Assembly: GCA_965153455.1 (NCBI GenBank) | Contig: OZ234493.1 | Coordinates: forward strand, 1,116,001 to 1,180,000 | Direction: 5' to 3' | Length of the DNA: 64,000 nt | Source of the DNA: Sphagnum compactum | Lineage: Eukaryota | Shown: positions 4,611 to 61,888 of the stretch, piece by piece | Layout of the letters: every line of letters starts with the position of its first letter | How positions within the stretch are numbered: position 1 is the stretch's first letter | Made by a program: the position numbers and the translations under genes | The notes under the pieces: generated by a model | Told to the model about the DNA's origin: nothing | Databases searched by the model: none | What the model saw: only the letters and a program-made list of their open reading frames with translations

Positions 4611-7600
4611 TTGCAACATTTTACGTGGTTGTATTCTAAAATCAGTGACCAATTGTCCTAACTTGAGTAACTTACGGTAGAACGTATTTGTGATATCTTC
4701 AAGATTGACTGTATGTGAAAGGGGATTGTCCAAGCATTATGTTAATGAAGAATGTATGGCACTTTTGACTTAAAACTTTTGAATGTTTTGAATGTGTCGA
4801 TGCATGTACATCATTATTATGCAAAATTAATGTGGCAATATAAATTTACTAGCCCTTTCCCGAGAGTGGGGGAAATTATGCGGGATGGATGTATGTTAAG
4901 TTGCCTTGGTTGGACTTATTTTACACGGGAAATGATATCTTCCTATCATATTGATTATGAGTTTGATATTTGAAAAATGCACAAGATTTCGACTAATGAA
5001 AAGAGAACTCAATGCTGTTGAAAATTGTGAAGGTGTGTTGCTGTTTGAAAGTTAAGTTGTGCTTCAGTTTTGTCTTCAAGTTCAAATTCCTATTTTTGGG
5101 GATTTCAAGAGTCAAAATCACTGAATTTTTGTTTAAGGCATAAATTTCAAATTTAAACCCATCATTAAGGCATTAATTTTTATTTTATTTTAAATTTTAA
5201 AATTTTTTTGTATTAGTGTTTAAAGATTGATAACCTTCATGGATGATAATCAAGTCAACCAAATATGTCATTAGATTTTTGAAATTTCAATATCAAGTGG
5301 ATATCAATTTAACCAATTTATCAAAAAATAAAAAACCTTTTGGCAGGTTATTAATGCATAGCTTGATAATCAAGTTCATAATCAGGTCAAAACTCAATAA
5401 CCGACCACCGCTGGTGTGGATGTATGAAGGTTCACAATGCTTCCATTTTGGCTACTTGAAACAAACAAAAGGAGAAAGTGTGTGTATGTATGTACTTCTT
5501 TAACTCATGAATGGGCAAAGGTTGAGTATAATCCTCTCCACCACACCCGACTCCTTGTCCCATCCATGTATGCATAACAAATCGTTTGTATAATGATATT
5601 CACATATTTCAATCTTGACCTAATCGATTTACAAACTTCAAAGATATATCGAAAAAGGCAATGTAACACCAAAAGGATCAAAATATATGTAGAAGCTTAT
5701 TTTCTTACAATTTAACATGTAAATGATGTTGGAATGGATGTCACAAGTGTAAAGAATTGGAAACCAAAAGCAAGTCACTTAGAGCATCTCCATTGTGAGT
5801 CTGAAAGCCCAATACAATGATACTTTGGCATTGGCAACCGAAAATCAACGTTGGTGTGCACACCCATCACACATTCTAGATGGTAAAAGAAACCATGAGC
5901 TTAGACAACATTCCTACAACCCTCTTGCAAAGTGCAATATGCCACAATTAGATGCAGATTGCTATATGATGAAGAGCAAGAAGGGAAAGAGTTTTGTTTT
6001 AGAGGAAGAGAAATAGCTTTGCCATAATTTTCTTCATATTTCACATAACCTTACAATAGGTAATGGCCAGAAGACAACTTCATTTTGAGATCAAATTCAA
6101 GAACGTTACAATCAAAATCGCTATGTAGGTGGGTTTCACCTTGTGAAACATTTTCGACACATGTGTGATGAAATGACGGGTGGGGCCAAGTCAAGTTCTT
6201 GCAATGGAGTAAATTTTCACCATATATCAGCCCTTGCACAATAGAGCTTGCACACACCTCTCTCAAATTGATTTGTGGTGTCGGATGTAGGGGGGTGGTG
6301 GAGATGCTTTTAGTTTTATAAATGGGAAAAAAATGGATATATTTTTAAAGCCTAAATTGGAACAAGAAACCAACAACCTACTCTTCAACCGTTTTGTTTT
6401 ACTTGTTTAATTGTGTCTAACATAATCTTCAAAGCTCCTTGATCATTAGCAAAGGAATGGGGCATGTCTTGAAAAAAGATCCCGTGATAATTGATTAAGG
6501 ACAATTTCAAAAGCAAAACACCCTTGTGAACTTTACTAATAGTCAATCTTCCCACCGCATGTTAGATCTAAACATTCACCAAATTTCTCCTTGATGTGAA
6601 CCCAATAAGGATTCATCAAATTTTCAAAATCTATAAAATAATAATTTGAATAATATTACTAAAGTCTAGTCATTATGACACTACTAATATTACACCATAG
6701 TTTTTTAGAGTGATCACTACAAATGTGTGATTGTTAGTCATACACAAATAAATATTCATTATCAATAAATGAAAAATTTAAATGGCTTGTTGTGAAATAC
6801 ATTCATTTTCTTGAATTATTTATCATGAAGTTCCATAATTTAAGAAACATCACGAAATCTCCAAATAACACAACTCTTTAAATTTTGTATTAAGGTTGAT
6901 CATTGATATTGGGAGGGCCAATAAAAAAAAATTATAGAATTTGTCAAGAAGGTCAATATGACAATTTGATCACTAAGGAGCAATTTGACAACATCTTAAA
7001 TATAAGTTATGTTGACTAAAATGGAAACTCTGGAGTGCACTTGTAAGAGAAGGGTCACAAGCACAATAAATGTTGAAACTAAACTAAATAATCCATTTTG
7101 AATAACCCAAACTAAGAGTATACACATTTCTTCTTTTGATAAATCATCTTGCACATTTTTATTTATTTTTGGTAGAATATCAATAGTCCATCAATGATGT
7201 TCATGATGCCCAAGTTGGCCACCTACTCTAATAACCTTCAACTACAAGATCAATCATAGCTTCCATTGTTAGTACCCAAGTACTTGATGTTATTAACAAT
7301 ATTAAAAAATAAAATGATTGTCCTCCCTTAAAATTCTTGCACAACAACGCTCTCCATTAAACATACTAAATTGAAATTTTGCCTATGCATGCATAATCAT
7401 AAAGACTTAACGATGAGAATGAAGTAAATGTCCATTCTTTTCAAGAGGTTCTCAAGTGAATTGGCCAACAAACAAAAAATAAACCATTGCCAAAGGTCAT
7501 ATCTTCATAACAATATAACCTAAAAAAATGTTGTATATTACCATGTCCTTTCTATAAACTACTTTGACCAAATGCCAACAACCCACATAAGAAAACATTC

Positions 7601-10756: not shown

Positions 10757-12086
10757 TCTATCTATGAAGGAAGGCAGTTTGTTTTGTAGCCATGAGAGTA
10801 ATATCGAACTGGGATACTTCAGATCGCCTTCTTGGTCTCTTTGGAAAGCTCTCAAGGCGAGAGGGCGGGGTCTGCATTGGTCAGGGCGAAACCACACTCA
10901 CATTGGTACCAATTTATACAGTGAAGATGAACAGATGAAGAAAGTCTTTCATTCAGTCAGGTCCCATTGTTTTAAAGTAGTGATGTGTGGGTCCATCATT
11001 TCAAAGCAGAGAAATGTGGGCCCTTATCTCCCTTGACTTTTGCAAATCCTTCTTCTCCTATTTATTTCCATAAGAATAGTCCTCCCCACATTTCTTCCTG
11101 CTGCTGCAGCCAACGTGGGAGACTAAACACCCCCCCTTCTTAAAGAGCTCTGTCCGGCGCTGCTTTCGCTCTGACAGTGCAGCCCTGCGGAGAACTGTGT
11201 TGTTCTGCCGCAGGGGTTTTATATTTTTGCCCTTTTTTCACTTTGTATCTGGAGTAAAGTGGAAAAATGAACTTCCTTTCCCAATGCCTAATAGTATGTC
11301 AGTGGTTAGAACCACAAGCCCTGAAGAGGAGTCGTCGGTTTGGTTCCTGTGGCCAACACTTCTAAAGTGATGGCATACAACAGTGGCGTTCAAGAGAACG
11401 ATTTTAAAGTGTTCTTCAAGCTTTTCCAAGAACATTAAAAACCCCCGGGGGGTTGCATGGTTTCTTGCATAACTGTGCAAGGCCAAAAAAGGTGTGCGAA
11501 AAGACAAGTGGAACCAGCGCCGAACAGAGCTCGTTAGGGGGTGTTTAGCGCCCCACGCAGCAAGCACTTCAAAAGAAAACCCTCTTTTCCTCCTCTTGCA
11601 ACAAAACACAAGGGGGGCCGTCGCGGCGCCCCAGAATCACAAAAAAAACAAAACGGGGGGAGGCATTGTGGCCCCCCCATCTTCCTCCTCCTGCAACAAA
11701 TTTTGCCTCAAAAAACACCAATGTGAGTGGGGTTTCACCCTCTGGCCAGGTGCATCATCGGCTTGGTTTCATGGCATTTGGACTTGTGGTGCAAAAGTTC
11801 TTGAATATTGAGTGATTTTTCACTGAAAATTAAAGTAAATCGTAGCTGAAAATTTCAGAAGAATTGGAATGTGCCTTCCATGTTGTTGGAAAGACCTTGA
11901 TAACAGGATTAAATGGAATTTATTTGGTAAGATTTGGATTCAGAATGTGGGAGATATTGATTTTTTTAAGTGATTTTTGCTGCTGAAAATTCAAATAAAG
12001 TTCCCAAAAGAACCAGGTTTTGAAAGAAAAATAAATCAGTTGAGGACGCGGTAACACTTAGGCCAAGGGCACAGGCCACACACTAG
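10757..12086 (+). mobile_element. Non-autonomous Helitron-like element, family 1, with a ~0.9 kb internal insert
   Basis: Begins A|TCTATCTATGAAGGAAGG and ends GGCC..GGCC-ACACACTAG|T. Both ends align with the shorter copy at 26742-27178. Confidence 0.65.
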
Positions 12087-12343
12087 TTTACACGGGAAAA
12101 GTATCTTATGGCAAAAGAAGAATTATGAAAAAAACTCAAATATTTCACGGTGCCAAAATATAATCTTCAAAAAATCCTCCAGAAAAAACTAAAATCCTTC
12201 AAGCGATTATTATAACTCTATAATAACTAATGTCAAGTTTCAACACAAGCCAAAATATCATGTTTCAAAAATCCTCATAATAAAAATAGACCTATTATTG
12301 ATTATTTATTACCTAGAATGGGCCAAAATCCCGTAAGCTACTA

Positions 12344-12999
12344 TCTTATATATAAAGTACCTTGTCTGTCCGTGCGTCCGTCCGTCCGACGACGTTCTGG
12401 GAGCATTTTCTATGGCAGAACCGGCCACAGAGATAACTGACCACCGGCTAAGCAGCTTGCCTCATTGTCCGCCGCTCCGTCAGTCGGACGTGTCGAGGTC
12501 CTGAAACCCAGATCGGGACCCGCCTGTCCGTCCGTCTGGTCGAGGTCCTGAAACCCAGATCCCAAATTGTAAAAGTAAAATAACCACCCAAAAACCTGCC
12601 TGGCTCCTCTTTTCCGGCAGTTCTGTGATTATGTGGATGAAATATTATACGTTTTTAGTTCCGTCCAATGAGGCTCAGAGTTCTGGATGGGTGGTTATGA
12701 GGATGAGATATCATGTATTTGTAGTTCCGTCCAATTAGGAGGAATGATTTGTGGATGAAATATTAAAGATTTTGTAGTTTTGTCCACTTAGAGTTTTGGA
12801 TGGATTGATTATGTGGATGAAATATTTATGTATTCGTAAGTTCCGTCTAATGATAAGTTTTGCATGGTGATTTATTTGGATGGAATATCATGTATTTGTA
12901 ATTCCGTCCAATTAGGAGTTCTGGTCTTTGGGGTCTCCTTTGGACTCCCAGTTTTTTCCCAGTGCCGTGTCGTGCCTTGCAGGCACGGGAGCCCACTAG
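12344..12999 (+). mobile_element. Non-autonomous Helitron, family 2, upstream of the mannosidase gene
   Basis: 5' A|TCTTATATATAAAG; 3' hairpin CGTGCC-TTGCA-GGCACG followed by CTAG|T. Internal ~55-65 bp degenerate repeats at 12630-12915. An empty-site paralogue at ~49115-49145 (minus strand) shows insertion at A|T with no TSD. Confidence 0.85.
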
Positions 13000-13756
13000 T
13001 ACTCTATAATGAATCAAAACATTAGAAACTAGAAACATGTTTCCCATAATGATTTGACCAAAGTAATTGACCATTCTATTGCAGAATAAGTTTCTAGATA
13101 CGTGTCACACTTTCAGTGGCCCAAAATTTCTTCCCAAAAAATCAATTACTCACAAGAATTGCCGCGATGTTGCCCATTCTGCAGCGTATGTCGCCCGCTG
13201 AGCTCTGTGGCGCTGTGCAACTTCCCCTGTGCAGAATGGAACTCCAATTTTACGCCGCATAACGCGCTCCGAGGGAGATTTTACGCCGCATAATGAGCTC
13301 GAGGAGCGAGCTGACCGTACATAATGGGCAGGCTCGTGGCCATTCCTGATTAGGTTAGGCAAATTCCGTCGTCACGCTCGCGTGCGTACCTTTACACCCA
13401 CGTGCCTTGTACGCACGCACTGCGCGTAGCGACTTTTGCGATCGCTGTGCTTCGGCTTCTGCGGAAGCACCATCGCCATTTCCCAGTGTCGGCCTGCCTG
13501 TTGCCGTGCTCTCAAAGTGTTTTGCACAGAGACTCAGGCTTGGGTAAAGGGTTGTGTGTACTGGAGCATTGAAAGTTGGCACCGGAACACTTGGGTTTGG
13601 CTGGATTTTTTTTTGGTTGTTGTTTCTCTAATGGGTTGTTGTTGTTCCGATTCGTTTTTTTGAGATCTTGATGGTGTTTTGCCGGAGAGGTGAATGTGGA
13701 GTGTGAAGGAGTCGGAGAGAGGGAGCGGCGTGGTTGCGGGACAGGAGGATTGGATA

Positions 13757-16700
13757 ATGGCACGGCCAAGGGCAGCCAGTTCTTGGCCACGAGTGTTGCA
13801 TCCTTCCTACTATTTGCGAAGACCTCGCCGCTTGTTGGTCCTTGTGGTATTCTTTGTGGGTACCACATTTCTGCTGTGGGATCGACATAACCTTATACAG
13901 CATCATGAGGTGACTACTTACTTTATTTGCTTTCTTTCCCTACTCCTCCTCCTCACTGGCACTAGAATTCCCGTGTTGATGAGCTTTTCTTAGGGTTTTC
14001 TTGCCTCATGAATCCTTTTCCAAGAGATGGATTCAACTGAGTGAAGAATTTTCAAAGCAGAAAGATTTTTGGGGACTTTCTTAGCCAAAAAGAATTTCAC
14101 ATTTTGTTTCTGGCAATATGGGAGACTTTTGAAGCCCATGGTGCTTCATGATGAGTGCATCATCAGCAAACACCATCGCTACTGGGTGTTGAATTGGTAG
14201 ATATAGAGATGGTGGCTCGCCCCAGGTGTCAGGTTGCCTCCTGCTTGTTGGTTGGAAAATCTCTGTCTTCATTTACAAAAAAAAAGGGTTGGTTGGCATT
14301 TTCCACTGAAGTGAAGCAAAAGTTTGATACAACTGTGGAAAGTGTGTGTGTATACTTATGCACAATGTGAGCTGCACACATTGGAAACTACATTGACCTG
14401 CTGATGAATATCATGAACATCTTGGATTTTATTGCAATGTTTTGAAACTGAAAGAGAGACAGACACATGGCTTTAAGGTCGAATCTTGGACTTAAGGGGC
14501 AGAGCGTGAACTGGAACCATGTTGGATCTTACATCTACAGCCTCTCATGTTGGCTTGTCAGCAATGCAGAGCACACTTGCGAAGATCAATCAGCAGAAGG
14601 AGAAGCTCACCCACAAGGCAGGATAAATTCCATTTCCTCTTTATGCATTATTTGTGCTTGTAGTGTTTCTGAATCTGTAGAGATCTGTAGTGGAAACTGA
14701 TTACTATCAGAGTTCTGTCTTAATGAGTGAGAAAATAAAATGCTGAGCATTTTTTATGTATGGTCTCCGCACTGAGAATACCCCTTACTAATCAGGAGGC
14801 TCCAGTTTTAGTCTGAGATTATTTCTCCGGACAGTTATCTATAGAGCTTGAGTGGAAGTCAATTTCTGTTGTGATCGCAAGAGTTCCAATCATAGACTGT
14901 AGGTGGTTTCATCAGCTGTCTTAATGAATTCTTGCTGTGCAGGTGGAGGAGTTGGCTAAGTATCTCAAAGGGGAGGGAAAGACCTTCCAGTTGGATGGTG
15001 AGGATGAAAGCAGTAGTAAGTCAGCACAACAGGGTAAGTCTGAGCAGGAAGGCATTGAGAAAGAAACAGAGGACCCAATTACAGAATACCGGAGAAGCCA
15101 AGTGAAGGCTGCTATGCTGCATGCCTGGAGCTCTTATGAGAAATATGCGTGGGGTTTCGATGAACTTCAGGTTTGTCTCTGTCACTTGAAGGATCACTGA
15201 TAGAAAGGAGGATACATTGATTCTACCTGTTAGGCTTTTAGGTCATGTATGAGATTGGATCTGATGCAGATCTAAGCACTCACTCATGCAGCATGTGCAG
15301 TGGCATTCCAAAGAAGCTCCCAAAATAGGCTCTCAAAGTTGCTGATTCTCTGTTTATTCGAATTGCCTACATATCACCTAACAGCTTCAATGAATTGCCA
15401 CCATGCAGCCTCAGTCGAGGCGGGGCGTTAATCATTTTGGAGGACTGGGAGCAACCATCATCGATTCACTGGACACACTATATATCATGGGCCTTGAGAC
15501 GCAATTCAATAAAGCTAGAGAGTATGTGTGACTCACCTTTGTAATGTTTTGTTACAGATGATATGAAAGAGTCATTAGTTGTTGCAGAAAAAAATCAGTT
15601 CTAGGAGCTACTCTGGCTTGCATTTGCGATCCCTGCCTTGTCCATCTGTTGCTGTTGGTGCATGGTTCAATGCCTTGCCTGTAAAAGTTGCTATCCTTGC
15701 TTTTTGTTGTACATTTGGGTTCCTATGTAGTTTGTTCCTCTCACATGATCAAGTGCAACTTTCATTGGTGTGAATGTGCAAACCACCTAATACCTGATGA
15801 ACTTTATGCAACTTTAACACTCCTCTTTTGTTGGTTGCACCACAGTTGGGTTGCTGAAAATTTGCACTTCAACAAAAACTATGATGCAAGTGTCTTCGAG
15901 ACCACCATTAGGTACACATCCCATGCCATTGTTGCACTTGGAAAACTTATCTGCATGCCATGAGTTGCCAAGGACTTTCTTGTCTGCTGCACCATGTTTT
16001 TCACAGTCACTGTATTGAGGAATCCTTTCCAAGTTAGATGTGAATACCAATGGAAGTGATTTCTAGTGCCAGTAGTTGCACCAAGCAGAGGAAGTTGAAG
16101 AAGTGATGGATATTTTTCTGACCCCTGTTTCCTAGGATGATTCTTTCTCCTTGGTTCAGCTGACAAGGTTCCTGTCTTCTTTCTAGATTGTGATTCCTCC
16201 ACTGGGTAACTGGGGCAGTTGGTAGCCACATTCTTCCCCAAGTCCTTTGAAGTTTAGGCATTACAAATGTTGGTGGTTGAGTGGTGACACTATTCATAAT
16301 GGGTGGACTTTTCTGTGTAACATTTAGCATGCCTCACAACAGGATTGAACTCAGAAACTGCACAGCCACACCCCCATTTTGTGTCTGAGGGATCAAGCAA
16401 ACAATTTTGATTTTGGTGATGAAATGACAAAACCCAAGAACAAGAGTGAAACAATACACATCCCAAATTTGTATTTATATAGGCCTCTATGTCCTTTAGG
16501 CATAGATGCTTGCATATACAGGGACATGCTAAAATGAAATAAAAGCTCTTTCCTTCAGAAGCTTGTTGCAGCTTGAATGAGGATACTGTTGACTTTTTTG
16601 ATTAGCAATGTCTCTTGAGTGCTAGCCAACATCACGTCTGAATCTTCCCATTGCTTCCGGAAAGGCAACAGAAACTCAGGACGCAGATTGTGTATAATGG

Positions 16701-19700
16701 TTTGCCCAAGTTTTTTGGGAAGATTATTATATGCTTATCTACACCCACTGTTGGGAGCTGATGAACTCAGTGGGTAGTCATGGCAGCTCGTCACTGCCGT
16801 TCGTGACGAAGGTGATGGTCTGTCACTTCGTGAGCGACTCTCATGAGGTTATGACTGCACTCATTGTCGTGTTACCTTTAATTGTTGTTGTGGAGATTTC
16901 TCTGCAACTTCATCGATCATCTATCTTCTCCTTTTGTGTCTCCGATGATGCTTGGCGCGTATGCCAGGGAAAAAGAAAATCAAGTAGTTCAATACCATGA
17001 GTCTTGTGTCTTCTTGTCCATGATCTATGGTGCTGAAGTACATGCCTTGAAACCAGGCAACCTCTATGCAGATGGTTGACATTGTTTCTCTCTTCATATG
17101 TTACTGGTGTGGACAGAGTGTTGGGAGGGCTGCTGAGTGCTTATGATCTTACTGCTGAAAAGATGTTCCTCACCAAGGCAAAGGAAATAGCAGACCGACT
17201 TCTTCCTGCTTGGGATACTAGAACTGGCATTCCCTACACTACAATCAACCTGGAATCTGGGCGTGCTCACAATCCTGGTTGGACTGGGGTAAGCTATATT
17301 TGTGTTTCTCATTGGAAGTCCTTGTGAGCTCGTCTACTGTTGTGTTCTTTGCACAAAGATTGATAACCCCTGAACAGGCAGTCTGCTATAACCTACCCTG
17401 AAGAATATCCCTGGATCTCAGATGGGTCCTGCAAGGAGTTATGGCACTAGAGAGGATGTGGTTGCAAGATAGGATAGAAAGTCAATTGGTGTGGTCTATG
17501 AGCTTTCTCTGATAGTCTCCCTTCCAAAATGTAGCTATGCGGGAAAGTTTGGATGTGGATAGATTTGTGTTCTGGACTAGTCTGTTGTTGAGATGTCTTT
17601 GATACTCCAAGAATGGGTTGTGAGAAATGATTTTGGTTGGTTAGGTAACTTACTAGAAGCACAACTGTGACATTTACTTTGTGTAGGGCTCAAGTGTCTT
17701 GGCTGATCTAGGAACTGAGCAAGTGGAGTTTATTGGGCTGTCCCTGAGAACTGGGGACCCCAAATACAAACATAAGGTAAGATGTATGGAACTGAAGGGA
17801 ACATGACCACTGTTTTGAACTCACCATCATTGTCAACCTTGGATTGTATAGGCTTCAGTTGTTGTGCATCAGGCTAAGGTCCCATTCTAGGGGCAGTTTT
17901 CAATTGCTTTTCAACAGACCATTGCCTGTTTTAAAGGAAGGGAATATTAAGTCAGTGGAGGTTGAGCTCTTGCTGGGTGTGCATGTAGCACAGACAGACA
18001 TACATACATACATATATATACACCCTGTTTTCCCTTCCACTTGACCATCTTCACTGCTCCTACCTTGGGTGCAGGTTGAAAATGTGATCAAGCAGCTGAG
18101 AAAACATTTCCCCAAAGATGGGCTGCTGCCCATTTACATAAGTGCAGATTCTGGGCAGCCCACAACTGGCAAAATTACATTTGGTGCAATGGGTGACAGG
18201 TAAGTTTTGGCATTGTCCACCTAATATGATGCTTTCTTGAAATGATCTACATGACAAGGAATCAGAGAGTTCATTGAGCTTCTGACTTGTGCGCTCTATC
18301 TGCACGAGTCTCTCAGTTTTTCCTTTCAAGTTGGTTGTCTGCCTGTCTTGGAATAAGGTTTTGATCTGTTTTGTGTTTTACAGCTTCTATGAATATCTGC
18401 TAAAAGTTTGGATTCAAGGGAACAAAACAGAGGTTGTGAAGCATTACAGGTACTCTTTCTGCCCTTAAAAAAAATCCTCTATTATTCAAGCCATATGTCA
18501 ATGTATGAGTTCACTATGCTAGTCCATGCAACAGATTCATAGATTGATTTGCAGCAGCAAGGGTAGTTGTTGAGCAATAGGCTATAATGTGCGCAGAGAA
18601 ATGTGGGAGCAATCTATGGAGGGCATGATGGGCTTGGTCTCAAAATCAACTCCTTCAGGTTACACCTTTCTTGCAGAGCGCTCTGGGTCCACCCTGTTCA
18701 ACAAGGTACCAAACAATGAATATGCAAAAGGTTCAATCCTGCCACAGTTGAACAATCTTAGCACAAAATCAGCCTTACTGGGAATTTGTTGCACAAAAGA
18801 AGATTCTAGAAATTTGGTGGATGCCGGCAATGTTGTCCTTACACCTGTCAACCATTGCTGCGAGATGGTCTTGGTGGAGGTGAAGTCACCTATCATTCAG
18901 GAAACTATTTAATTTTGTTGCAGATGGATGAACTGGCATGTTTCGCCCCGGGTATGCTGGCACTTGGCACAGAGGGAGCCCCACCTGAAAAAGCAGAGAA
19001 ATATTTGACACTTGCAAAGGAGGTAAAACATTGATGTTTCCAGATCCTTGATTAATCAGGTTACATGGAGCAGAAGGCGGGTTCTTTCTGCATGATGTTT
19101 GAGTACTCTCTGCTTCCTCCTACACTCTGTAAAATGTAATTCTGGACTTATTGTTTGTCTGACTGGGTTCTCCAAGATCTATGTTTTGGTGCACAAGTGC
19201 TGTCGATCTCTTGTAGTCCTTCAACTGTTTAGCTGTTGCTCCTTTGAGAGAGTCATTTATAGCTAAATTCATCTTTAAGGAATACTCTCGATCTTTTTGA
19301 TCGATTTTATCTGTGTTATGTTTCAATCCTCGCCTATCTTGTATGACACTCCTATGACATGTAAGGTTCTCTTGTCCACCTTTGAATTCTAACTGTAGTT
19401 CCTTCAGGTGATTCCATTGCTAGCCTGTCACTAAGTTTTGGGAGTATTCTTGAACTTTTGCAAAGGGGTTCATATTTTTTTCCCTCCTCTGTAGTTCTTC
19501 TGTCTTTCCAAGTTTTTTCCTTTTTTTCTCTGGGTTGCAGATTTTCATATTTCATTGCACCCTAGTGGTCAAGGGCAGAGTCCTAGTTTGTCTTAGGGAA
19601 TTCTAATGCTTTTTCACAGGCAGTTCTCTGCAAGTGCCAGCACTGTGAGCAATCTCTGAGTCAATTCAATCTTGCTGCCTCCCCAGTAGGAAGAAAATCA

Positions 19701-22700
19701 ATTAGTTTCTGTCAATCTTTGTTTTTTAGAGGCTGTAGTGTAGAAGGTAAGTCCAGTAACAGGTAGTTGCACAGAGTTTGTAATCCTGCTCCTATCATGC
19801 AGATCCTAAAGCTTTTGTTCTGCATCCTGGTTTGGAAGCCCAAAGTTCAATCCCTTCCTCTCTTAGTTGTGCTCCTCCATGCCTTTCTCTATAGAGACAG
19901 ATTGCACCCCTCATGATCCATAAACCCTAAACCATAAACCCTAAACCCTATCCATCTGTTCCTTTCCTGTTGTGTTAGCTTTTGTTTTGCTGGAGCTTAC
20001 AAAGGTTACCTTGAAAGTATTGTTGTGGATTTTTCTCTGCAATCTCTTAGATATGCATTCCTATAAGATTTTTAACTATGGAGTTTCCAAACAAAGATTG
20101 GCTCTCTGACCTTTTGTCCCGACAAAAGTTCTCTTCCAAGTTTCTTGCCCAATGTTTGTCCAAAAAAATTAGTGTTCAAACAAATTTCCTCCTCACAAGT
20201 TGGGTAGTTGAATTGGCCATACTTTGCAGCTATTCAATGTCTTGAGTCCCCTTGTAGGATGTCGTTTGTATAAAAGCAAAACCCAGTTTTTGGGTAGAGA
20301 TCTCTTCACTCCAGTCCTTACTTCATTTGATGGACAATATAGGTCTCTTATCTTTCTGAAACTCCCTGCGGTCACGGATTGTGTCTTTCCTGTGATCCAT
20401 AGAAGATTTTGGTCTACTCCCCCTAGTAGCTTGGAAGAAGTATTTTAATCTGTAGATCAAGATTTCTGTATTGGAGAGATATGGCAAAGGACTTGAGCCT
20501 CTTGGGGAAGTCATCGAGAGTAGCGATTCCAAGAAGTTCCAATTTCCAAAGATTTGTTACCCCTTGGTTGGGTGATGTAATTTCCACTGACCTAGACATC
20601 TTTTTAAAGGCCTAATTTGATTGGTCTATTTTTTAGAGGTACAAAGTTTAGATGATGTTTTCTGAACAGTTTTGTCTCTTCAAGAATCTATTTGAAAGAG
20701 GTCTTAACAATTTTTGTTCTTGAGCAAGAACAGATCTTATGGGTGCATGGGATTCAAATATATTTGATTAACAGGATAAGAACAAAATAAGGTAGTAAAA
20801 GTCTAATTTTATCTTCCTGGCTAGATTCCAGATAGATAACCTGATACATGTCCTGAGTCAGTCGTAATGCAGTGAGTTGGTATCCCAATGGGTGCACTGA
20901 TTGTGCAGTTGTAAACAACTGTCTTTTTATTTCTCTGTGTACTTTGAGGGATATCCCTCAGGAGAAGAACCCTAGGGTGTTATGTCAGGGGAGATCCTCC
21001 TATCCTTCTATGTTCCCCTGTTCCCATAAAAAGAGAGTTGTTTACATGCATGGAGTTTCCTGTACAAGTGGGTCCTCCTGAGGTTTGGGAACACTTTAAG
21101 ACTCACACCTGCAGGTGGCCCTCCCTCAGGAGAACCCACTTGTACAGGAACCTCCCCTACAACTTTTTGACTCACTTCTACCTCTTGTAATATGAGTTTA
21201 ATCTTTTGGTTCACCTTCTTGTCTCATTCTTGTCCACGTTTTCATTCTAAGTTACACTCAGTAAGAAGGTTTGTAGAGACAATCTGTTAGTTCCTAATCT
21301 CCCTGATTTCTCCACCTTCATGTATCTAGACAAAGACTATTGGCAATGGTATATGCGCAAAATCATTTTATACTTCTAATGGCTTCTCTTGCAGTTCCTT
21401 AGATTAGCCATACAATAAATTCAAACCTTTCTTCTTTTTTGTTGTTGGGTTTGTCCTCTCTCTCTTCCATGGTGCATTTTCTTCTTTGCTTCTTTAGTCA
21501 TAACCTTTTAGGTTCTGTTGAGCTAGCCAACTTTTATGGCCAACCTTATGACATTGACCCTCCTCCAATAGCTGATGAACTCCATCGGCATTTGTGGTAT
21601 CTGTTTACTACCATATGTGTTGCTGTTGAAGGTGTCTGAACATGATTACGACTTTCACTGTTGTTCAAACCCACTGTTGGGAGCTGATGAACTCAGTGGG
21701 TAGTCATGGCAGCTCGTCACTGCCGTTCGTGATGAAGGTGATGGTCTGTCACTTCGTGAGCGACTCTCATGAGGTTATGACTGCACTCATTGTCGTGTTA
21801 CCTTTAATTGTTGTTGTGGAGATTTCTCTGCAACTTCATCGATCTTTTTTCTAGTGGCTTTAGCGGATGTTCTGCATCCAAGTAGTCACCAGTGGTGTGC
21901 TTAAAGGATATGTTCAGGGTGCAGGAGGCCCCAACCACTACCCTATATATAGGCCTCTATGTCCTTTAGGCATAGATGCTTGCATATACAGGGACATGCT
22001 AAAATGAAATAAAAGCTCTTTCCTTCAGAAGCTTGTTGCAGCTTGAATGAGGATACTGTTGACTTTTTTGATTAGCAATGTCTCTTGAGTGCTAGCCAAC
22101 ATCACGTCTGAGTCTTCCCATTGCTTCCGGAAAGGCAACAGAAACTCAGGACGCAGATTGTGTATAATGGTTTGCCCAAGTTTTTTGGGAAGATTATTAT
22201 ATGCTTATCTACACCCACTGTTGGGAGCTGATGAACTCAGTGGGTAGTCATGGCAGCTCGTCACTGCCGTTCGTGATGAAGGTGATGGTCTGTCACTTCG
22301 TGAGCGACTCTCATGAGGTTATGACTGCACTCATTGTCGTGTTACCTTTAATTGTTGTTGTGGAGATTTCTCTGCAACTTCATCGATCTTGTTCAAACCT
22401 GCCCTCAGTGTTTTTGGTTATTTCATGTGTTCTTGAAGGTTTAGTTTCCTGTTGTACTGTTTGTTGATATGTTTTCAGATCTGAAATCTCTGTTACCTTG
22501 TTATTAGGTCATCTCTCAATTCTCTTGAGTTTCAGATAATTTGAAAGTATGTAGAAGTTCTTTTTACCAATGAACATATGTAATTGTTTGTTCAGCTTAC
22601 CCGGACTTGCTACAATTTCTACATGTCAACTCCTACAAAGCTTGCTGGAGAGAACTACCAATTCTATGATGGACAGGTACGCTTACAACTTTGTCATACA

Positions 22701-26741: not shown

Positions 26742-27178
26742 TCTATTTATGAAGGAAGGTAGTTTGCTTTGTTTTGTAGTTATGAGATCCACCAAATTGG
26801 GATCCTTCATATCATGTTTTTGGTGTCTTTGAAAAGCTCTCAATGATGAAGGGTGCACGGGCTTGGTTCCATGACATTTAGACTTGCGGTGTAAAAGTTC
26901 TTGAATATTGAATGATTTTTTCACTAAAAATTAAATTAAATTGTAGTTAAATTTTTCAAAAGAGTTAGAATGTGCCTTTGGTGTTGTTGGAAAGATCTTG
27001 ATGAGCAAGATTTAATGGAATTTATTTGGTAAGATTTAGAATCAGAATGTGGGAGATGTGGATTTTAAAGTGATTTATGCCATTGAAAATTCAAATAAAT
27101 TCCAAAAAACTAGGGTTTGGAACGAAAAATCAGTTGAGGATATGGTAACACTTGGTCCAACAGCACATGCCACATTAG
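26742..27178 (+). mobile_element. Non-autonomous Helitron-like element, family 1 (short copy)
   Basis: A|TCTATTTATGAAGGAAGG ... GCCACATTAG|T. Collinear with 10757-10870 plus 11750-12086. Confidence 0.65.
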
Positions 27179-35100: not shown

Positions 35101-38100
35101 AATTGGCTGTATCCCATTGACACACAGTTCTCAGTCAGTTATGAACTTTGGCATGTTAGCATGCATCACATGTTGCTGTTGAAAGTCAATGCACATGTGT
35201 GTGACTGTCCCTATAGTTCAAACCAGTCCAGTTGAAATTGGGCATGATATCAAGCCTCTCATGTTGCTGTCTAAGGTCACTGGATATGCATGTAACTGTC
35301 TCCATTGTTCAAACCACTCCTCAGTTTTTCCTGTGTTTCTAGGGCTGGAGTCTCTTCTTTTTCATGTTTTGTTTTAGGGGATTATATACTTCATCTCCTT
35401 TTTGTATGGTCTTTTCTCAATTCTATTCAGGTTGATGGTTTTTGTAAGTATGGGGAAATTCTCAAAACTTATTAAGATAGGTTATCATATCTCACACATC
35501 CAAGCATGTGCAAGTTGTTGGAAGTGGAGTTCATCTTCACATACACTCACAGTTTCCTTTGTATGCAGGCAGGTTATGAGGTTTTGGTGTGTGATTTTCA
35601 TGTTCCACCTTTCACTGGTCCAGAATCTGTGGTATGAAATCATTTGTCCTTTGTGTGAAGTGGGTAAATTTAGTCAACCCTTTTCATTGATCATGACCAA
35701 CTTCATATATGAGACTGCCTGAATACATATAAGATGCCTAGTGTTGCATTCTTGAGTAAACTCCCAGGTAGCGTGTTTGCTTTTACTCTGCATCCTTTGA
35801 GGGTCAAGATATAATGGTTCCATGTACTTTTGCAGGTGAGTGTTGTAAATGACAGATCACTTTGCAAAGGTTCTCTACACATAAGAAACATATCATGATG
35901 CAGAAAAACATATTGGGTTGTTTTTGCAGCGGTTATATGTAGGTCGGAAAGATATTGTCAACAGCTCTGCATGCCTTATCACTCCACCACAAGTAAAGTA
36001 AGGCTACATTCTCTACTCAATTGCAGGTTCTTGGGTCCAGGTTGTCCAACAAATTTTTCCCACCTTTGCCATGGAGGAAACAATAGGAGCATTATGATGT
36101 TGTAAACGAACAATGTCTAAAACCCACTATGTGGTAATACCTCTAGTTGCTTGCCTTGGTGAATTGCCATGTCAGGATTGAGGCCTTGAGAATTGAGAGG
36201 ACTTCCTCTGTGTATGTGTCCTCCGTGCCCTGCAACTCATCGTAGGAGTTCTGAAGTGCTTTTTATCACCCCTGCAGCTTCTTGGTGAATGGCAAGGAAG
36301 TGGACAGGAGAGTAACTGTGGGATTCCTGGTAAGGAGGCTGTGCTCAAATTGAGTTTGGATAGCTCCCATCATTTTTTGGCAAACTTTTGTCTGGAACAG
36401 CCAGGTTCAAGAGTCAGGTCAGTTATGGTTGGGCACATTTTTCATGGGGCTGTGTGGCATGGGAGGCAGGATGGGGGACCACAATTGCCTACAGATGTGA
36501 CAATGCTGGTAAAGGCAGGATCCAACGTACTACAAGTTATAGGTGAATTTCCTGGTGAGTTCAGCATGTAAGCTTTTGCTTGCATTTCTGTTCCACAGGT
36601 TATAATTGTCTGGTGCATATGGGATTCAGAAAGCACTTCAGCTTTCACTGGTTGTTTTTCCTTCCATTTCCTTTTTGCTTCTTGCATCCAGGCATGAGGT
36701 GGGAGCTGTGTCAGTGATCCACTCAATCCAGCAATTTCAAGTGTGGGGAGACATTATGGACATTCTTGCATGCTTTTGTCAAGCTATTGGGAGTAAACAG
36801 GGAATCATTTTGTTTGAATGCAGGCCCCTATAGCATTGCAGTTGCATCAACAATCAGGACTGCTCTTTCTACAGCAAATACTCAGTTGCAAGATTATGTT
36901 CTTCCTTCAGCAAAGACTGCAGGATTGGGGGAGATGGTGGAGGCAGATGATGAAGTGGTTGAGGGTGCTTCAAGAGTCTCTCTTCGTTGTCCAGTCAGGT
37001 ATTTCTCAGTCTGAACTTCACTAATCTGGAGTAGGGATTTACTTTTTTGTGGGCCTCTTTGGTCCCAATGGGGTACAACCTGAGACCATTGTGCTGAGTC
37101 ATAAGACACCATGGGCCAGTTGCTCTAAATCTGTCAGTCTGTTGGTTTCTTGCAATGTGAAATAGCCAAACGTCTACTCCAGAGCTTAACATTTGTCATT
37201 AGGCACTCTTTTGATTCTTGGTTAGTCTGGTGCAGAACATAGTTCTCCTGTCAACCCTTTCTTTTTTAGGTGTTGCCTTAGTTAATATTTCCACAGTGGA
37301 CTGGCAATTTACCTGGACCTGGTTGTTTTCCACTGGCTACTGCATGTCATTTACAGTTCAAGAGGGTAGGGTTCAAGTACAAGGGTTTTTAAGAAAGTTA
37401 TGTGTCAGGGTTTCTGAAAAACACATATGTTCTGAGCGTGTGTTAAGAGGCAGGCATTTTCTGTGTACAATTTATTGCATTTTTAGCAAAAACAGCCTGC
37501 TAGATGTGTAAAGTATCCAATCAACCCCAACATTTTGCTGACAGCCTTTGGCAAAACTTGCTTTACTGTTTGGCACTGCAGTCATCAACGCCTGGTGACT
37601 CCTGTCAAGGCAGCAACCTGCAGGCATCTACAGGTACTTTTAATTGTCTTCCCTTTTACAGCCTCCACATATCTTGGTGTTTTGTGTATTTCACTACTCT
37701 CTATGTAGGCCTCTCTATGCCTTAGGCTTGCTTGCTTGTACAAGGACTAGATAAACCAAAATGAAGCTTACTGTCACCAGCTTGTTGTAGCTTGAATAAG
37801 GATACTGTTAATGTTTCTTTTTAGCTATGTCTCTACAGCGGTAGCTGAGTTTTCCTGTACTCTTATCTAAACTCACTGTTGGGAGCTGATGAAGTCAGTG
37901 GGGAGTCATGGCAACTGGTTACCAATGATGCTGGTGACAGTCTGACACTTTATGAGCAACTCTCATAAGGTTATGATTGGACTCATCATTGAGTTACCTT
38001 TCAAAATATTGTTGTGGAGTTTTCTCCACGTTCTCTTAGATTGTCACATAGGTCTCTTGCAGGATTGAAACAAGTCCCGAACAGGAAAGGAGAAAAAAGT

Positions 38101-44391: not shown

Positions 44392-47300
44392 TCAACTAGG
44401 ACTAGTCCTTTGAATTTGTTCTTCAAGCTCCAATTTTTGGAGGTAGTTCATTTTCCTCGATATGCCCTACCATCCATCAAGGAATATGACATTTCCATAA
44501 GTGTTTATTGCTTAAGCTTGGTGTCACTTCTATGTTTGGATCCAAAAACTTTTGTCATGTTATTTCATATATATGGACTTCAATTGTGATGATCATTAAT
44601 GCCTTGAAGTTAAGCTTCTATCTTGGATAGAAGAAAACAAAGAAGAACAATATTTGATAATCACAATTTACAAGATGTTTCATAAATGTGATAACAAAAG
44701 TAAGTAATAATATGGTCATCTTGTGCTAGAGTTTGTTACATTTACCATAATGAAATTCGTAATAGTTCAAATTGTAATATTAAGCTCAAAGATGGCAAGA
44801 TTACCTCAAGCAACCTAACAAGTTTCATTTCACATTCATCAAGGACCCTTTTTTCGTGTGTTTCTTTATCACTTTCCTAAAAATGTCCATGCCATGAAAA
44901 ATGTTATAAATAACATTACATGACAGAACACCAACATAACATGATTTACCTCAAGCAACCTAACAAGTTTCATTTCACATTTGTCAAGGACCCTTTTTTC
45001 ACGTGTTTCTTTATCACTTTCCTAAAAATTTCCATGCCATGAAAAATGTTATAAATAACGTTACATGACACAACACCAACATAACATTACATACTATACA
45101 ATTTTGTCGGCTTAAGCAAAGATTTTCAAACTATATGAACTAAAATAATGTTGGGACACGTCCACTATGCAACACAAATCTCAAATATACTTTGTTCCTT
45201 TTTATTGCATGCATTGGAAAGTGTTTTAAAAATGGTGTTAAGCATAACCGATCGTTAATCAATATGTAGGCTATTCACGCCTCTAACCAAGTTAAACATT
45301 CAACTTACCACATTTTGTGTACCTCGGTGGATTTTGTCCACCAACTTTTTGGTGCCTTCCAACAATAGTATTAATGGGTACGAATTTTCTCTGTGTTGTC
45401 GTGTTGAAATGTGTCGAACATGTTCCTTTGTTTTCTCAACAAGGCCATTGACTTCTTGTAGTCGGATTACGCTTTTCCTCTACAAAAGTTAGGAAAAAAC
45501 ACATTTTGCTCAAGAGTGCATTGAATTTTGTGTTGTAGATGTTACTTAAAATCATGTAAGTGAACTCATGATCTAAAATTCTTGTGCCAAATGTTTTTAT
45601 TCATTAAAAACCTATACATGTCACGGTTATTCATTTTTAATCCATGAATTTTACAATTCAAACTATAAAATTTGGTGCATGTGTTTACATATCGTGTGGG
45701 TTGAGCGCACATAAATGGATGATTAGTGGACAACTTACTCCCACTTCAAGGCATCCAGTAAGTTTTTTTTGTAATTCACTTTTGCATTGACAAATGTCCA
45801 AATTCATAGAAAAATCCATGGTATAATTTATTTTATTTTATTTTATTTGTAAAAAAAGAAGATAATTTGAACCAATGTTGCACAATTGCACTAAACCATT
45901 TGGCATTTGGTATTAAGATTTATAGTGCCAATTAATAATGTAATCATGTTATTAAGAGATATATGTTGTAGTGTTTTTTTCCTTTTTTCTCAAATTTATG
46001 ATGTAATGCAATTGGTGATCATCCATAAGAAGATATTGCCAATTTTGGCTATATATGAGAGTCACAAAATTTAAGCATCCTGTTTCTTCTATATTAAAAT
46101 ATATTCCATAAGCCTAGTGGTTTTTTTTTTTTTTGGGGTTTAAACTTCCATTTTTCCAAGATTTGGTGAATTTGGATCTTTTTCCATAAAAGACCTTTGT
46201 AGTCAAAATCATATATTTCTAGTAAAAAGTTGCAAAATTTTGCTAGAAAAAAAAATGGAGATGTCCTTTTTTTTGTAACTTTATCGATCAACATTAAAGA
46301 GGGATCAATGATATTAAAAACATCACATTTAAACTAGTTAGTATGATGAAGGGCCTTTTCCTTATGTTACACCACTTAGTCCAACAAAAAGAAATTTAAA
46401 AGAAAATACTATTGGTTTGATGCTTAATGCAACCGCATAACGCCCAAGTAGTCACACCAAGTTTTTGGTCGATTACCCATTTTATTAATGGTCTATGATG
46501 AATTGTTTAAGTTAAGGCAATTGGGAATTAGAATATGCACCACGATTAATCATTATTTCAAAGTGAAAGAAAAATACAAGAAAGTTTGAAGAATTATACT
46601 AAAAGTGAAATCAAATTCAACTACTAATCATATCCCAAAGCCACTTTTAAACATCTCAAAAGGATTTGATGTCAAATTGAAAGGATTTTGAATTATATTG
46701 TGTTTAAAAGGAGGTAGCCTAGTTCAAGGGAATCTTATGTTTTGTGTGCTTATGTTGTGGCAACTAGTTTACTTTCAATAGTGGGTTGAAAACATCTTGG
46801 TAATGCTTTCCCTTAGGATGTTCCCTCATCCCAAGATGATGTTTAACATAGGAAATTCCATTTTAAAGCTACTAACATGTTCATATCATCTAGGTTGCAC
46901 ATCATGACTTTCACATATTTCATTTACTTTACACAACAATGTAAGAATTTTTTTAAAAAAAAATTTGTGGGTTATTATTATATTTTTCATGTGCATGTAT
47001 CCAATTATAAGGTGGTTCAAATAGCTCAAAGTGATCTCATATAACTTTGATTCATGGGCACCATCCCATTTAATTAATGTCAAAGTTATATGAAAATAAC
47101 TTATATTTAAACACATACATGGAAATCAAACATTAAGTTCCATTGTTGAAAACTTGATACTCCAAAGACTTGGAAGTATTTATAATTTTTTTTAAACACT
47201 AAATCATACAACATTTGTTCATAGTTCACACAACATGATAAAAATAAATTAATTGATACCATGATCATTTGGAGAATTCCCATGATTATGAAGGCCTCAC

Positions 47301-50300
47301 CTTGTGAGTATTAGGTATGGGTGCTTCATTTCGGAGTTGAGACAATGTTGTTTTGAGTTCTTCACGGATCTCCTTCAAATACATTGTCTTTTTTTCTTGA
47401 AGTAAATGTTCTTGATACATCTCGCGCATACTATCCACTTCCATAACCGTTTTTATCTCTTTGATGGCTTTCCTCATATGCCTTTGTGTTTTTAAGCTTA
47501 TACCTTCCTAAAAGTTTCCATGTACATGCCCCCAAACAATAGATTATTTTACTCAAAACATGCACTCAATGTTCAACGAATGTGTGTAGCTTGTAATCTC
47601 AAAATGTTTCGAGTTGTTTAATATTGTATTTTTTTCGTATAATGTAAATTGACTTAAAATCTTACCTTTTGAAATAAAAATGTGTGAACTTGATTTGCAA
47701 GGCATTAAGTATGGATTATTTACTTCTTATTTTCAACTTTTATGTTGAGAAAGGCCTTTACAATAAAAACCCCTTTTTAAGTTGAGGCATCTTGCATGAT
47801 GTGGAGGTTTTTAAGGTTCTTGTAGATTCAAATGTTCTCTTCTTGGGTTTCCCCCCAATTCATTAATTTGATATTTTGGATTGTTACATGTCATTTGCTT
47901 ATATTTACATTCCAAACCTATTATTGCACAAATTTGAAAAGGTAGAAAGTTTAGTTATGTACTATTCTCCCTCCAGGAAATAAGCTTGCTAGGAGCTGGA
48001 TTGAAAAATACCAAACAAACACAATTTAGTACATGAATAGCAAAGATTGTTGGAATTCATGGCCATTATGCAATGGATGTGGGTTCAATTTGCCACTTGG
48101 CCATGCTAATGTTACTTATAATAGAGTTAGTTTAACTATATGGTAAGGGTGGAAATCACCATGTTGGGTACTTAAGGGGAAAAAAAACACTTTGGAAAAA
48201 ATCAAGCACCTACCCTACCCCAACTATGGTGGTTTAAAAATACTACCCACCACCAAAAGAAGGTCTAGCCACCAACCTTTTCACTAGGAGAAGAAAAATA
48301 GGTTTATGGTCTCTATTAGTAAATTACTTAGTAGATATTTTAAATTTCAATCCTAGTTCTCTATTATCCAATAAATCTAAGAAAGTTTCCAACCAAACTA
48401 TTTTTTAATGTAAATCAATTCATGCACTCAAAAATTCAATGTATTGATCAACAAATGGTAAGGTTCAATAGAGGCATTTGAATAAAAGAAAGAATTAAGT
48501 TCTATTAAATCCACATCTCTCTTAAACACATATATGTATATTCCATTTTTGAGTCATAACAAGCATGCTACAAAAAATATAGGGCAAAATGTCTGAATTT
48601 AAAGAACAAAAACAATGATTAAAAAAGGAACCATTTTGTACATTTGTTTGCTTTAGGTTTTTATTCGCATAAAAACAACATTTAATATGTGAGGATATTT
48701 GCTACAAGGCTTATGTTGAAGATGGTTCCATTATCAAATGCAAAGTGATGTACAAAACATAGTTCAAAATGTGTGTGAATTTGTGTATATTTCTTTTGAC
48801 ATCCGATTTTATGGTCTAATTGCCCATGACACAAAATTTATATATTTTCATGTATGCAAGTATTGTTGTTTATTGTCCAATTTGCTAGCTTGAAAAAAGA
48901 ATTGGCTATAAATATGATGTTTTATGAGATGTTGTTGACATCCACATTCATATGCTTAATCGTATCGAAGAACTCAAACTTGTTTAAGAATACAATAATC
49001 CAAAAACATGATTTGGTATGCATGTGTAATGTTTATGCACATGTTGCCAATTTATTTGGTCATGTGTTGATCAACTGAATTTATTGGCCTTGCCTACGAA
49101 GGCAAGGATATTGTGTTTAGATTCATTATAGAGTATAGTAGCTTAAGGGATTTTGCCCCCTAGGTAATATGTATATTTTTATACGAGGATTTTTGAAAGA
49201 TGAAATTTTGGCTTGTGTTGAAACTTGAGATTAGTTATTGAGTTATAATATCTTGAAGGAACTTGGTTTCTTTTAGAGAAGTTTTTGAAGATTATATTTT
49301 TGCATGGTGAAATATTTGAGCTTCCATAATTCTTCTTTTGCCTTAAAATCCATTTTAATGTAAATGACAAGGCCACAATGTGACACACCCCTTGTTTATT
49401 AGTGGTATCAAATCAGTAACTTACTTCTTCGAGCTCTTTTCTTGCATGATCACGGGATTTGGTCGAATCAAATTGTACCATACCTAGTTGAGTGATATGG
49501 TGGCTCTTTAAATCAATGATATTTGTTAATGTTTGAAGCTGTCATGAAATATTGCAACTCCAAATGGTTCATTATGAAATTTTCAACATAACATAATTTG
49601 TTTTTCTTAAACAAGTATGTGGATTTTATGGGTAAAGAAATTTCAAGACATGATATAATGTTTTATACTTGATATTGTGACAATTTATTGGTCTACAAAG
49701 CATGTGTTCATGATCAACCCAAATATTAAAATGTGCATGAAGGTGGAATATGGTATGATATTGTACCTGAAAGTTATAAAGAATGCGTTCTTCCCTCATG
49801 TGGACCAAAATGTTTTCAAAATGTTTTTCAAGGATTTCATCATGTTTAATTTTAATGTAAATTGCCTTTAGCTTCTCGTCCAAATATCGAATTCTTAACA
49901 AGGGTGGGGTATTGGGATCCAACAAATTTGCACACTCAATTTCACTAGACCTTGTGTTTGTAATTTGACTTTGTAGCTGGCCACACATATTTTACCCATG
50001 CATTACTATTAGGGAATTGAAACTTTTTTATGTGTGTGTGTATATATATATACTTGTATGATAGCTTTTGGGTCATGGTAAACTTACAAATTATTGACAT
50101 TGGCCAACTTAACAATTAGGGAGTCGGTGGGTAAACTAGCCATCCAAAGTGAGCAAAATTGTTGGTTTTTTCAATTAATTTGTGGGGGAAGGACAATGAT
50201 ATTCGTGGTCTATAATTACAATTTGGCATTGTTCAAATATATAACACAAAGGGTTTGCATGTGACATGTCTAATGACTACATGTTCCAAGGTTTTCCAAG

Positions 50301-56107: not shown

Positions 56108-61888
<5,781 letters not shown>

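Follow-up and report, generated by a model that had tools for sequence, protein, structure and literature searches.

A hairpin-rich repeat of Sphagnum compactum, probably the 3′ body of a short retroposon with a Penelope-like partner

Positions 22081 to 22388 of a 64,000-nucleotide stretch of the peat moss Sphagnum compactum (GenBank assembly GCA_965153455.1, contig OZ234493.1, positions 1,116,001 to 1,180,000 of the forward strand; hereafter the window, whose own numbering is used throughout) can fold into a chain of hairpins that recurs at several places in the same DNA. What is this element, and why does it carry such a chain? A sequence-only reading had inferred long-term selection on its RNA structure across several subfamilies. 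The stretch is indeed structured, but it is a 3′ untranslated region (UTR) module within a mobile element and not a free-standing RNA gene. We consider it probable that 22081-22388 is the 3′-UTR-like body of a short, very abundant non-autonomous retroposon in the peat-moss genome.

A short element and its reverse transcriptase-encoding relative

BLAST of the 443-bp repeat that contains the hairpins against the window matched eight pieces (A to F and two short 3′ fragments), every one on the + strand. The full short element is 443 bp long and is made up of a 140-nt 5′ part of its own followed by a 3′ UTR like that of a longer partner described below; its copies share a fixed 3′ end and are truncated to different extents at the 5′ end. 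Its 5′ start at about 21946 was set by three independent copies that begin there (A, D and L068, the latter from the public contigs presented below). The pieces and related sequences are listed here in window order.

16476-16918, + strand: copy A, full length, 99.5% identical to C, in an intron of a GH47 mannosidase gene.
19964-20058, + strand: copy H, 3′ fragment of an F-like copy, 76.5% identity to 61535-61632.
21430-21660, resuming at 22400-22560, + strand: old decayed 3′ UTR copy of autonomous type, host of the insertion of B and C, with a decayed motif.
About 21669-21852, + strand: copy B, 5′-truncated, in tandem upstream of C (pseudo-long terminal repeat, or pseudo-LTR, arrangement), 97.8-99.4% identity to the 3′ 181-184 bp of A and C.
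21853-21945, + strand: spacer of 94 bp between B and C, itself high-copy, head-to-tail with the 3′ end of the element.
21946-22388, + strand: copy C, the full 443-bp short element, 99.5% identity to copy A over 443 bp.
22379-22388, + strand: constant 3′ tail TTCATCGATC, the shared end point of all copies of the subfamily.
37702-38026, + strand: copy D, diverged, 73-79% identity.
56863-57315, + strand: decayed reverse transcriptase (RT) remnant upstream of G, with three stop codons (tblastn with residues 596-750 of the homologue P0003, E 1e-7).
58055-58265, + strand: copy G, the 3′ UTR left by an autonomous copy that has decayed, much more diverged.
About 60423-60690, + strand: copy E, 5′-truncated, 98.9% identity, in an intron of a Rab-like GTPase gene.
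61402-61626, + strand: copy F, old, about 73% identity, in another intron of the same Rab-like gene.

The 12-nt motif GGAGMTGRTGAA occurs seven times in the window, all on the + strand, against 0.04 occurrences expected. These are the seven occurrences that had been noticed before, and they underestimate the family: the 3′ fragment at 19964-20058, the old host copy of B and C and the decayed RT upstream of G come in addition. Since this RT sits upstream of it, G can be identified as an old autonomous copy's 3′ UTR. The sole long frame touching the short element (22168-22467) continues into the flank, and the 443 bp hold no open reading frame (ORF) for an RT. The 5′ end of the short element (21942-21990) is itself a hairpin (TATATAGGCCTCTATG...CATAGATGCTTGCATATA) that also resembles a TATA box; its match to mir-1245 is below threshold (21.4 bits against 79, E 0.4).

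Searching publicly available metagenome contigs for a degenerate motif of 21 nt gave at least 120 loci (named L followed by a number) with at least 123 copies. The runs in which this stretch occurs bear the labels moss, plant and permafrost metagenome, besides coded organisms, in agreement with a moss origin. Among the matches listed, 119 of the 123 copies align to C, D or F, and those 93-98% identical to C have scattered starts (21944-22217) and ends confined to 22384-22395. Twenty young copies were inspected for target-site duplications. Six touch a contig end; of the 14 assessable copies, ten have a duplication of 10-19 bp, two only a 6-bp match and two none. Within the window, copy E is flanked by the 14-bp duplication CTTAGATTGCTTTG (60409-60422 and 60690-60703), and the block formed by B, spacer and C (21672-22388) by the 11-bp duplication TTGTTCAAACC (21661-21671 on the left, 22389-22399 on the right). 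In two loci (L067:2073-2296 and L118:932-1155, alignment A3), the motif and about 45 nt downstream are tandemly triplicated within the element.

The B-spacer-C block also has empty sites. Once it is excised, the host 3′ UTR copy aligns unbroken to G and to the consensus of c50, a group of autonomous-type copies described below, with 70% identity to both across the junction. A contig of run X15 joins window positions 21631-21660 directly to 22389, and an allele or close relative without the insertion therefore exists, so that the insertion is polymorphic or confined to one lineage or homeologue. This contig comes from an RNA-library run and shows about 2% other differences in the flanks.

Summed contig depth over the element in a DNA run was 13,000-89,000, compared with about 25-28 in single-copy flanks, a ratio in the hundreds to thousands. 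It climbed toward the 3′ end of the element and dropped about 20-fold past 22383. The B-C spacer reached 13,372-18,096 in run X3, again compared with about 25-28 for single-copy DNA. Summed depth is not a copy number; it indicates a very abundant repeat with many 5′-truncated members. No poly(A) or simple-repeat tail was found at the 3′ ends of the element in the window or in the young copies. Head-to-tail joints from 22390 to 21853 through TTTTCT/TTTTCC were present in RNA-library contigs of three runs, and the same joint of 3′ end and spacer lies in the window's own genomic DNA at the junction of B with the spacer. In L036, spacer-like sequence follows the 3′ end of an autonomous-type copy. 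The short element is recently active, very abundant, present in gene introns and polymorphic between samples.

The 3′ part of the short element, about 300 nt, is homologous to the 3′ UTR of a longer, RT-encoding element. Copies of the latter form the second large group, c50, with 23 of the 116 clustered copies among the matches listed. The two groups share the hairpin H1, a hairpin H2′ at the place of H2 of C, the motif hairpin and the terminal GGAG-ATTT-CTCT hairpin, at about 70-85% identity. Members of c50 are truncated to varying degrees and are homologous to one another over as much as 1,370 nt ahead of the motif; in L018 and L047 this homology reaches about -1,575. The translations of L052, L094 and L018 contain the RT motifs ...FDFSTLYTKI..., ...GIPMGTNCAVYLANFYL..., ...RFVDDLFV... 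and FLDLTV. Their RT frame stops about 200 nt ahead of the motif, leaving a 3′ UTR of about 455 nt; the shared hairpins are therefore part of the 3′ UTR of the autonomous element. In L018, a second copy resembling the short element (7155-7509) lies immediately upstream of a truncated autonomous copy, as a nested insertion or a pseudo-LTR.

A search of a large protein collection with the 334-amino-acid frame of L052 returned 271 longer homologues, the best at 40% identity (E 9e-62), and many of them carry precomputed RVT_1 and/or GIY-YIG domains. The RT match falls on residues 422-750 of the best homologue, P0003 (938 amino acids). We scanned six homologues: four have a GIY-YIG domain near the N-terminus (residues 27-79, 95-191, 117-185 and 192-229), P0003 with a match below the Pfam cut-off, and one of the four shows RVT_1 C-terminal to the nuclease; the other two gave no domain match. 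An RT with an N-terminal GIY-YIG nuclease characterizes the Naiad/Chlamys clade of Penelope-like elements (PLEs) in the passages of PMC8557442 that describe it. Because the RT relatives carry such a nuclease, the longer partner is in our judgment a likely PLE of the permuted Chlamys/Naiad type (N-terminal GIY-YIG, C-terminal RT), an assignment made from homologues. The N-terminal position of the nuclease in the moss element is itself deduced from the GIY-YIG domains of the homologues and from the missing room for coding sequence behind the moss RT. The string YMDKCC in the translations of L052 and L018 fits the DK motif without a conserved third residue that PMC8557442 gives for Chlamys in the part concerned. 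The B-spacer-C block inside one target duplication is a partial tandem (pseudo-LTR), and 5′ ends are variable. No hammerhead or any other Rfam family was detected in the window at the gathering threshold, in 12 related loci, or in 21500-22500 at E <= 10.

Several results weigh against this assignment. Pfam gave no match on any of the moss ORFs scanned, among them L052, whose frame runs from DK to RT motif B, and ORFs of L094 lying downstream. The N-terminal GIY-YIG was seen in homologues only: L018 spans just residues 178-930 of P0003, the moss copies stop short of the N-terminal nuclease region and no full-length moss copy was captured, so that the domain is predicted for the moss element. 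The insertion bias toward microsatellites reported for Chlamys did not appear, as none of the 12 target duplications read is (CA)n, (C)n or (TA)n. The 3′ regions of the autonomous and short elements are only about 70-85% alike, and a closer partner may exist. As to expression, RNA-library contigs gave high summed depth on the element and none on neighbouring single-copy introns; the element may be transcribed, but these contigs have neither strand nor ends, and carry-over of high-copy DNA could also give such depth.

Folding and covariation of the hairpin chain

The stems named in the sequence-only reading are all in place in copy C, with standard or G-U pairs only (22213-22220/22238-22245, 22246-22254/22318-22326, the three arms that this last stem closes, and 22357-22365/22370-22378). 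The base variants quoted for copies D, F and G were likewise found by direct reading; among them the change of TTGC/GCAA to TCAC/GTGA in G has a wobble intermediate, TTGC/GTGA, in L048. Together with the minimum free energy (MFE) fold, the following parts can be distinguished.

22105-22152, + strand: hairpin H1, an outer stem and an inner TTGC/GCAA stem, in the MFE fold, shared with the autonomous 3′ UTR.
22155-22210, + strand: hairpin H2, long in this subfamily, in the MFE fold; the autonomous lineage has the shorter, 9-bp H2′ in the same position.
22213-22245, + strand: hairpin H3, whose loop and 3′ strand contain the conserved motif GGAGCTGATGAACTCAGTGGG (22224-22244).
22246-22326, + strand: multi-arm region, previously drawn as a cloverleaf, of ambiguous fold.
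22357-22378, + strand: 3′-terminal hairpin GTTGTGGAG/CTCTGCAAC, with apex GGAG-ATTT-CTCT.

The + strand of 22081-22388 folds at -108.3 kcal/mol, better than all 100 shuffled sequences (z -4.38), compared with -90.4 kcal/mol (z -3.42) for the - strand. The + strand is thus 18 kcal/mol more stable, and the argument from G-U pairs that its RNA is the folded one holds because both its energy and its z score are better. We then folded a few other copies, with 30 shuffles each, which makes their z scores rough. On the + strand they were -3.4 for D, -3.1 for the c50 consensus, -3.0 for L037 and -1.8 for L116, and were not significant in the diverged copies F (-1.05), L032 (-0.75), L107 (-0.33) and G (+1.4). 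Three flanking controls ranged from -0.2 to +1.3. In this small sample the values fit a fold that is present in active master copies and erodes once a copy has inserted.

Covariation was analyzed separately for the two domains. The alignment of the 5′ domain held 63 copies (62 distinct) of the short and autonomous lineages, with H1, H2′ and H3 defined by hand. In these hairpins 85.6% of the cells were paired, compared with 82.8% after shuffling, 64 cells were doubly changed compared with 25.6, and the covariation score was 0.198 compared with 0.158 (none of 500 shuffles as high in any of the three cases) and with 0.05-0.10 for slid partners. The fold of the C row gave similar figures. A rank test insensitive to phylogeny was weakly positive (p 0.03 and 0.012), with 12-13 testable pairs and none in the top 1%.

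The individual hairpins differ in how they are kept. Helices 1-5 of H1 are 75-98% paired, with double changes in five pairs. H2′ alternates between GC, AU and GU (columns 112/184, GC 27 and AU 18; columns 120/179, AU 14, GC 12 and GU 9) and occurs as GG/CC, AG/CU and AA/UU among the diverged copies of alignment A3. The outer five base pairs of H3 are retained (CG/UG), and the inner two are broken in 25-26 of 66 copies. In L013, L028 and L060, which are of autonomous type, the terminal hairpin has the same apex on a lower stem that differs from that of C and is longer (14 bp, compared with 9 bp in C). Among by-stander copies, which the search motif had not picked, conservation is lowest in the loops of H1, H2 and arm 1. 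The invariance of the motif in alignments A2 and A3 holds by construction, because the loci were picked by that motif.

For the 3′ domain we aligned 68 copies of 22210-22392 and relatives (66 distinct rows), and here the proposed cloverleaf junction fared poorly. Over 22210-22392 it folds at -52.0 kcal/mol compared with -63.8 kcal/mol for the MFE fold, which is incompatible with its first two arms. Its cells were paired at 83.8%, compared with 83.3% after column shuffling (9 of 500 as high), and 29 were doubly changed compared with 17.3 (2 of 500), slid partners giving equal numbers or more. The MFE fold behaved in the same way (84.6 compared with 84.2% paired; covariation 0.131 in both the real and the shuffled columns, 205 of 500 as high). 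The top-ranked column pairs are subfamily-diagnostic sites, and changes in the region are mostly one-sided transitions that G-U pairs tolerate. The cloverleaf is one possible fold without evolutionary support, because its pair statistics match those of the shuffles and the rival MFE fold scores equally.

These data bear on the proposal that the RNA structure has been under long-term selection, and part of them speaks against it. The covariation score of the cloverleaf was 0.133 compared with 0.129 after shuffling (63 of 500 as high), RNAalifold returned 0 pairs for the 68 copies, and a G-test with average-product correction over 8,778 column pairs showed no enrichment for the cloverleaf or MFE pair sets (p 0.46 and 0.29). 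In the 5′ domain, a small number of differences that separate two large subfamilies contribute most of the signal, and each enters the count repeatedly. The - strand also folds better than its shuffles, and in the by-stander copies conservation of the block AGCTGATGAA is 83%, compared with 88-93% for several other blocks. Covariation is modest for H1, H2′, H3 and the terminal hairpin, and weak overall. In favor of the proposal are this modest covariation, the preserved shape of the terminal hairpin and the + strand z scores of D, L037 and the c50 consensus, with no covariation support for the cloverleaf; parts of the element may plausibly be under selection for their RNA structure.

Genomic setting and other features of the window

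The GH47 alpha-mannosidase gene has copies A, B and C in its introns; its exons were recognized by Pfam on both sides of A, and its splice joints 22673>22834 and 23007>23267 were read in RNA contigs. E and F lie in introns of the Rab-like GTPase gene, and Pfam gave no match on the window ORFs near copy D. All the element pieces (16476-61626, copies A to I) are on the + strand; with about eight independent insertions, this would happen by chance at about 2 x 0.5^8. Copies A, B, C, E and F, the five that could be placed, are in sense orientation within introns of + strand genes (GH47 and Rab-like), and so strong a bias toward the sense strand would not be expected by chance.

Two other interpretations of this region were discarded. 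A and C, 5470 bp apart and 99.5% identical, do not form an LTR pair: their flanks differ, they lack a primer-binding site (PBS) and a polypurine tract (PPT), GH47 exons lie between them, and each copy has its own target duplication. The exon running from ATG to GGACAG is not a Copia Gag sequence, as its splice joints (the two given above) make it a GH47 exon.

The remainder of the window contains a tandem array of a 94-bp unit at 53492-54637 (at least 10-12 copies, 91-95% identity), a tandem repeat with 56/103-bp units at 63681-64000 that runs up to the window end, and a 145-bp dimer tandem repeat at 44801-45090. Another dispersed repeat family, unrelated to the element, pairs 11760-12080 with 26860-27174 and, inverted, 12097-12352 with 49127-49355, at 78-83% identity. 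An exon with a BTB/POZ domain lies at 541-1176 (Pfam E 2e-10).

Proposed role, alternatives and related elements

The anatomy of a mobile element, homology to the 3′ UTR of the PLE, folding that is better than random and biased to the + strand, and partial compensatory change have been observed. By analogy with other retroelements, the chain of H1, H2 and H3 and the 3′-terminal hairpin with its tail is most likely a cis-acting RNA signal by which the RT of the PLE picks and primes its template, and the parasite would have kept the chain for this reason. The short element would presumably be transcribed, and the RT of the PLE would bind the 3′ module of its RNA. Target-primed reverse transcription would then copy this RNA into a nicked target, starting from the constant 3′ end, and such copying could give rise to random 5′ truncation, duplications of 10-19 bp, partial tandems (pseudo-LTRs) and head-to-tail junctions. 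We infer that the RT may recognize the RNA fold rather than sequence blocks. A bolder version has the hairpin chain, including the motif hairpin GGAGCUGAUGAAGUCAGUGGG, and the terminal hairpin as a new RNA module that replaces the hammerhead in those land-plant PLEs that lack one, either as a self-processing motif or as the first defined template signal of their RT, hijacked by parasites to thousands of copies; we hold this to be improbable.

The same mobile element might also carry hairpins that are not selected as RNA. Its conserved blocks would then act as DNA, for example as the promoter or transcription start of a pseudo-LTR, or as a linear protein-binding sequence, and their ability to fold would be a side effect of a composition rich in G/U and of inverted duplications of old date. 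We think this rather unlikely but by no means negligible. It accounts for a cloverleaf without covariation and with an equal rival fold, for the empty RNAalifold result, for a - strand z of -3.4 and for changes that are mostly transitions absorbed by G-U, and the PLE pseudo-LTR does carry a transcription start and promoter according to the corresponding part of PMC8557442. However, the dinucleotide shuffles control for composition, the two strands differ by 18 kcal/mol in favor of +, H2′ and the terminal hairpin pair with different sequences in different lineages, and loops vary more than stems in H1, H2 and arm 1.

The remaining explanations change the nature of the element itself. A short interspersed element (SINE) or short retroposon mobilized by a long interspersed element (LINE) of L1 or RTE type, with no relation to PLEs, would share the 5′ truncation, the long variable target duplications and the common 3′ end, which are LINE/SINE hallmarks too. 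It is very unlikely, given the absence of a poly(A) or simple-repeat tail, of any tRNA, 7SL or 5S family by Rfam in the window, and the presence of a partial tandem with spacer and of head-to-tail junctions; moreover, the RT homologues of the longer relative carry GIY-YIG and not an AP endonuclease. Those same junctions, in RNA-library contigs, could instead point to a retrozyme-like element whose tandem copies yield circular RNAs through a new, non-hammerhead self-cleaving motif at the CUGAUGA hairpin, a core-like string inside the most recognizable motif; ribozyme-bearing non-autonomous derivatives of PLEs are reported in animals (preprint 10.64898/2026.07.22.740005). We nevertheless give this little credence. 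No Rfam ribozyme family was found even at E <= 10, the A of CUGAUGA varies (CUGGUGA in G and in 5 of 123 copies among the matches listed), there is no GAAA at hammerhead distance, and the junction needs no circle because it exists in genomic DNA between B and the spacer. Finally, a host family of non-coding RNA genes, snoRNA-like or other, scattered in introns would agree with the sense orientation of all window copies and with the intronic position of the five placed ones. The best C/D-box matches are weak and below threshold (sn2903, 18.6 bits with gathering 50; snoU6-53, 16.6 bits with gathering 36), and nothing reaches the Rfam threshold. Target duplications, 5′ truncation, an empty site, a very high copy number and an RT-encoding relative make such a gene family barely credible.

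For a short retroposon paired with a PLE, as we propose, the closest known system is formed by the non-autonomous Chlamys elements (MRC1 of Chlamydomonas reinhardtii), as presented in the relevant part of PMC8557442. Both are short and non-coding, with a 3′ end like that of an autonomous family, pseudo-LTR or head-to-tail arrangement, 5′ truncation and no canonical hammerhead. In that account, the Naiad/Chlamys clade generally shows frequent 5′ truncation, pseudo-LTR partial tandems, an extra 'tail' and no canonical hammerheads, and each of these features recurs here. Unlike the non-autonomous Chlamys elements described there, the element reported here has a moss host, clear 10-19-bp duplications at non-microsatellite sites, a 94-bp high-copy spacer instead of a 30-40-bp tail, and a defined hairpin chain shared with the 3′ UTR of its partner. 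Canonical PLEs (Penelope, Poseidon, Neptune) and animal non-LTR retrozymes resemble it in their pseudo-LTRs, tandems and structured RNA near the 3′ end or pseudo-LTR. They have hammerheads and a C-terminal nuclease, whereas no hammerhead was found here by Rfam and the nuclease of the homologues is N-terminal.

Stringent LINE/SINE pairs share a 3′ stem-loop that is recognized by the RT of the LINE, as in the eel UnaL2/UnaSINE1 pair, and the R2 3′ UTR is a related case. Like these pairs, the short element keeps the 3′ UTR of its partner, has a terminal hairpin and a short tail at the integration point and lacks poly(A); it differs in that the retroelement class here is a PLE, and recognition by the RT would hold by analogy. 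With plant LTR retrozymes and terminal-repeat retrotransposons in miniature (TRIMs) it has in common that it is a small non-coding plant retroelement with repeats and structured RNA, but those have true LTRs, PBS and PPT, 4-5-bp duplications and type III hammerheads, none of which is present here, the duplications being of 10-19 bp.

Permuted-order PLEs were described in 2021 in green algae, Chara, spike mosses (Selaginella), a slime mould and invertebrates, mosses appearing only through a few BlastP hits in the corresponding part of PMC8557442, and a 2022 review lists plant PLEs for conifers and Selaginella only (PMC9033089). A full-text literature search for Penelope-like, or for Penelope with transposable, together with Sphagnum returned no paper combining them, although the supplementary lists of PMC8557442 may include moss families. 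The pair formed by a PLE and its parasite is apparently undescribed in mosses. Genome annotation should treat the repeat as a retroposon derived from a PLE and mask it, rather than call it an RNA gene. A parasite and a partner that share defined 3′ hairpins offer a concrete, testable candidate for the signal by which PLE RTs recognize their RNA.

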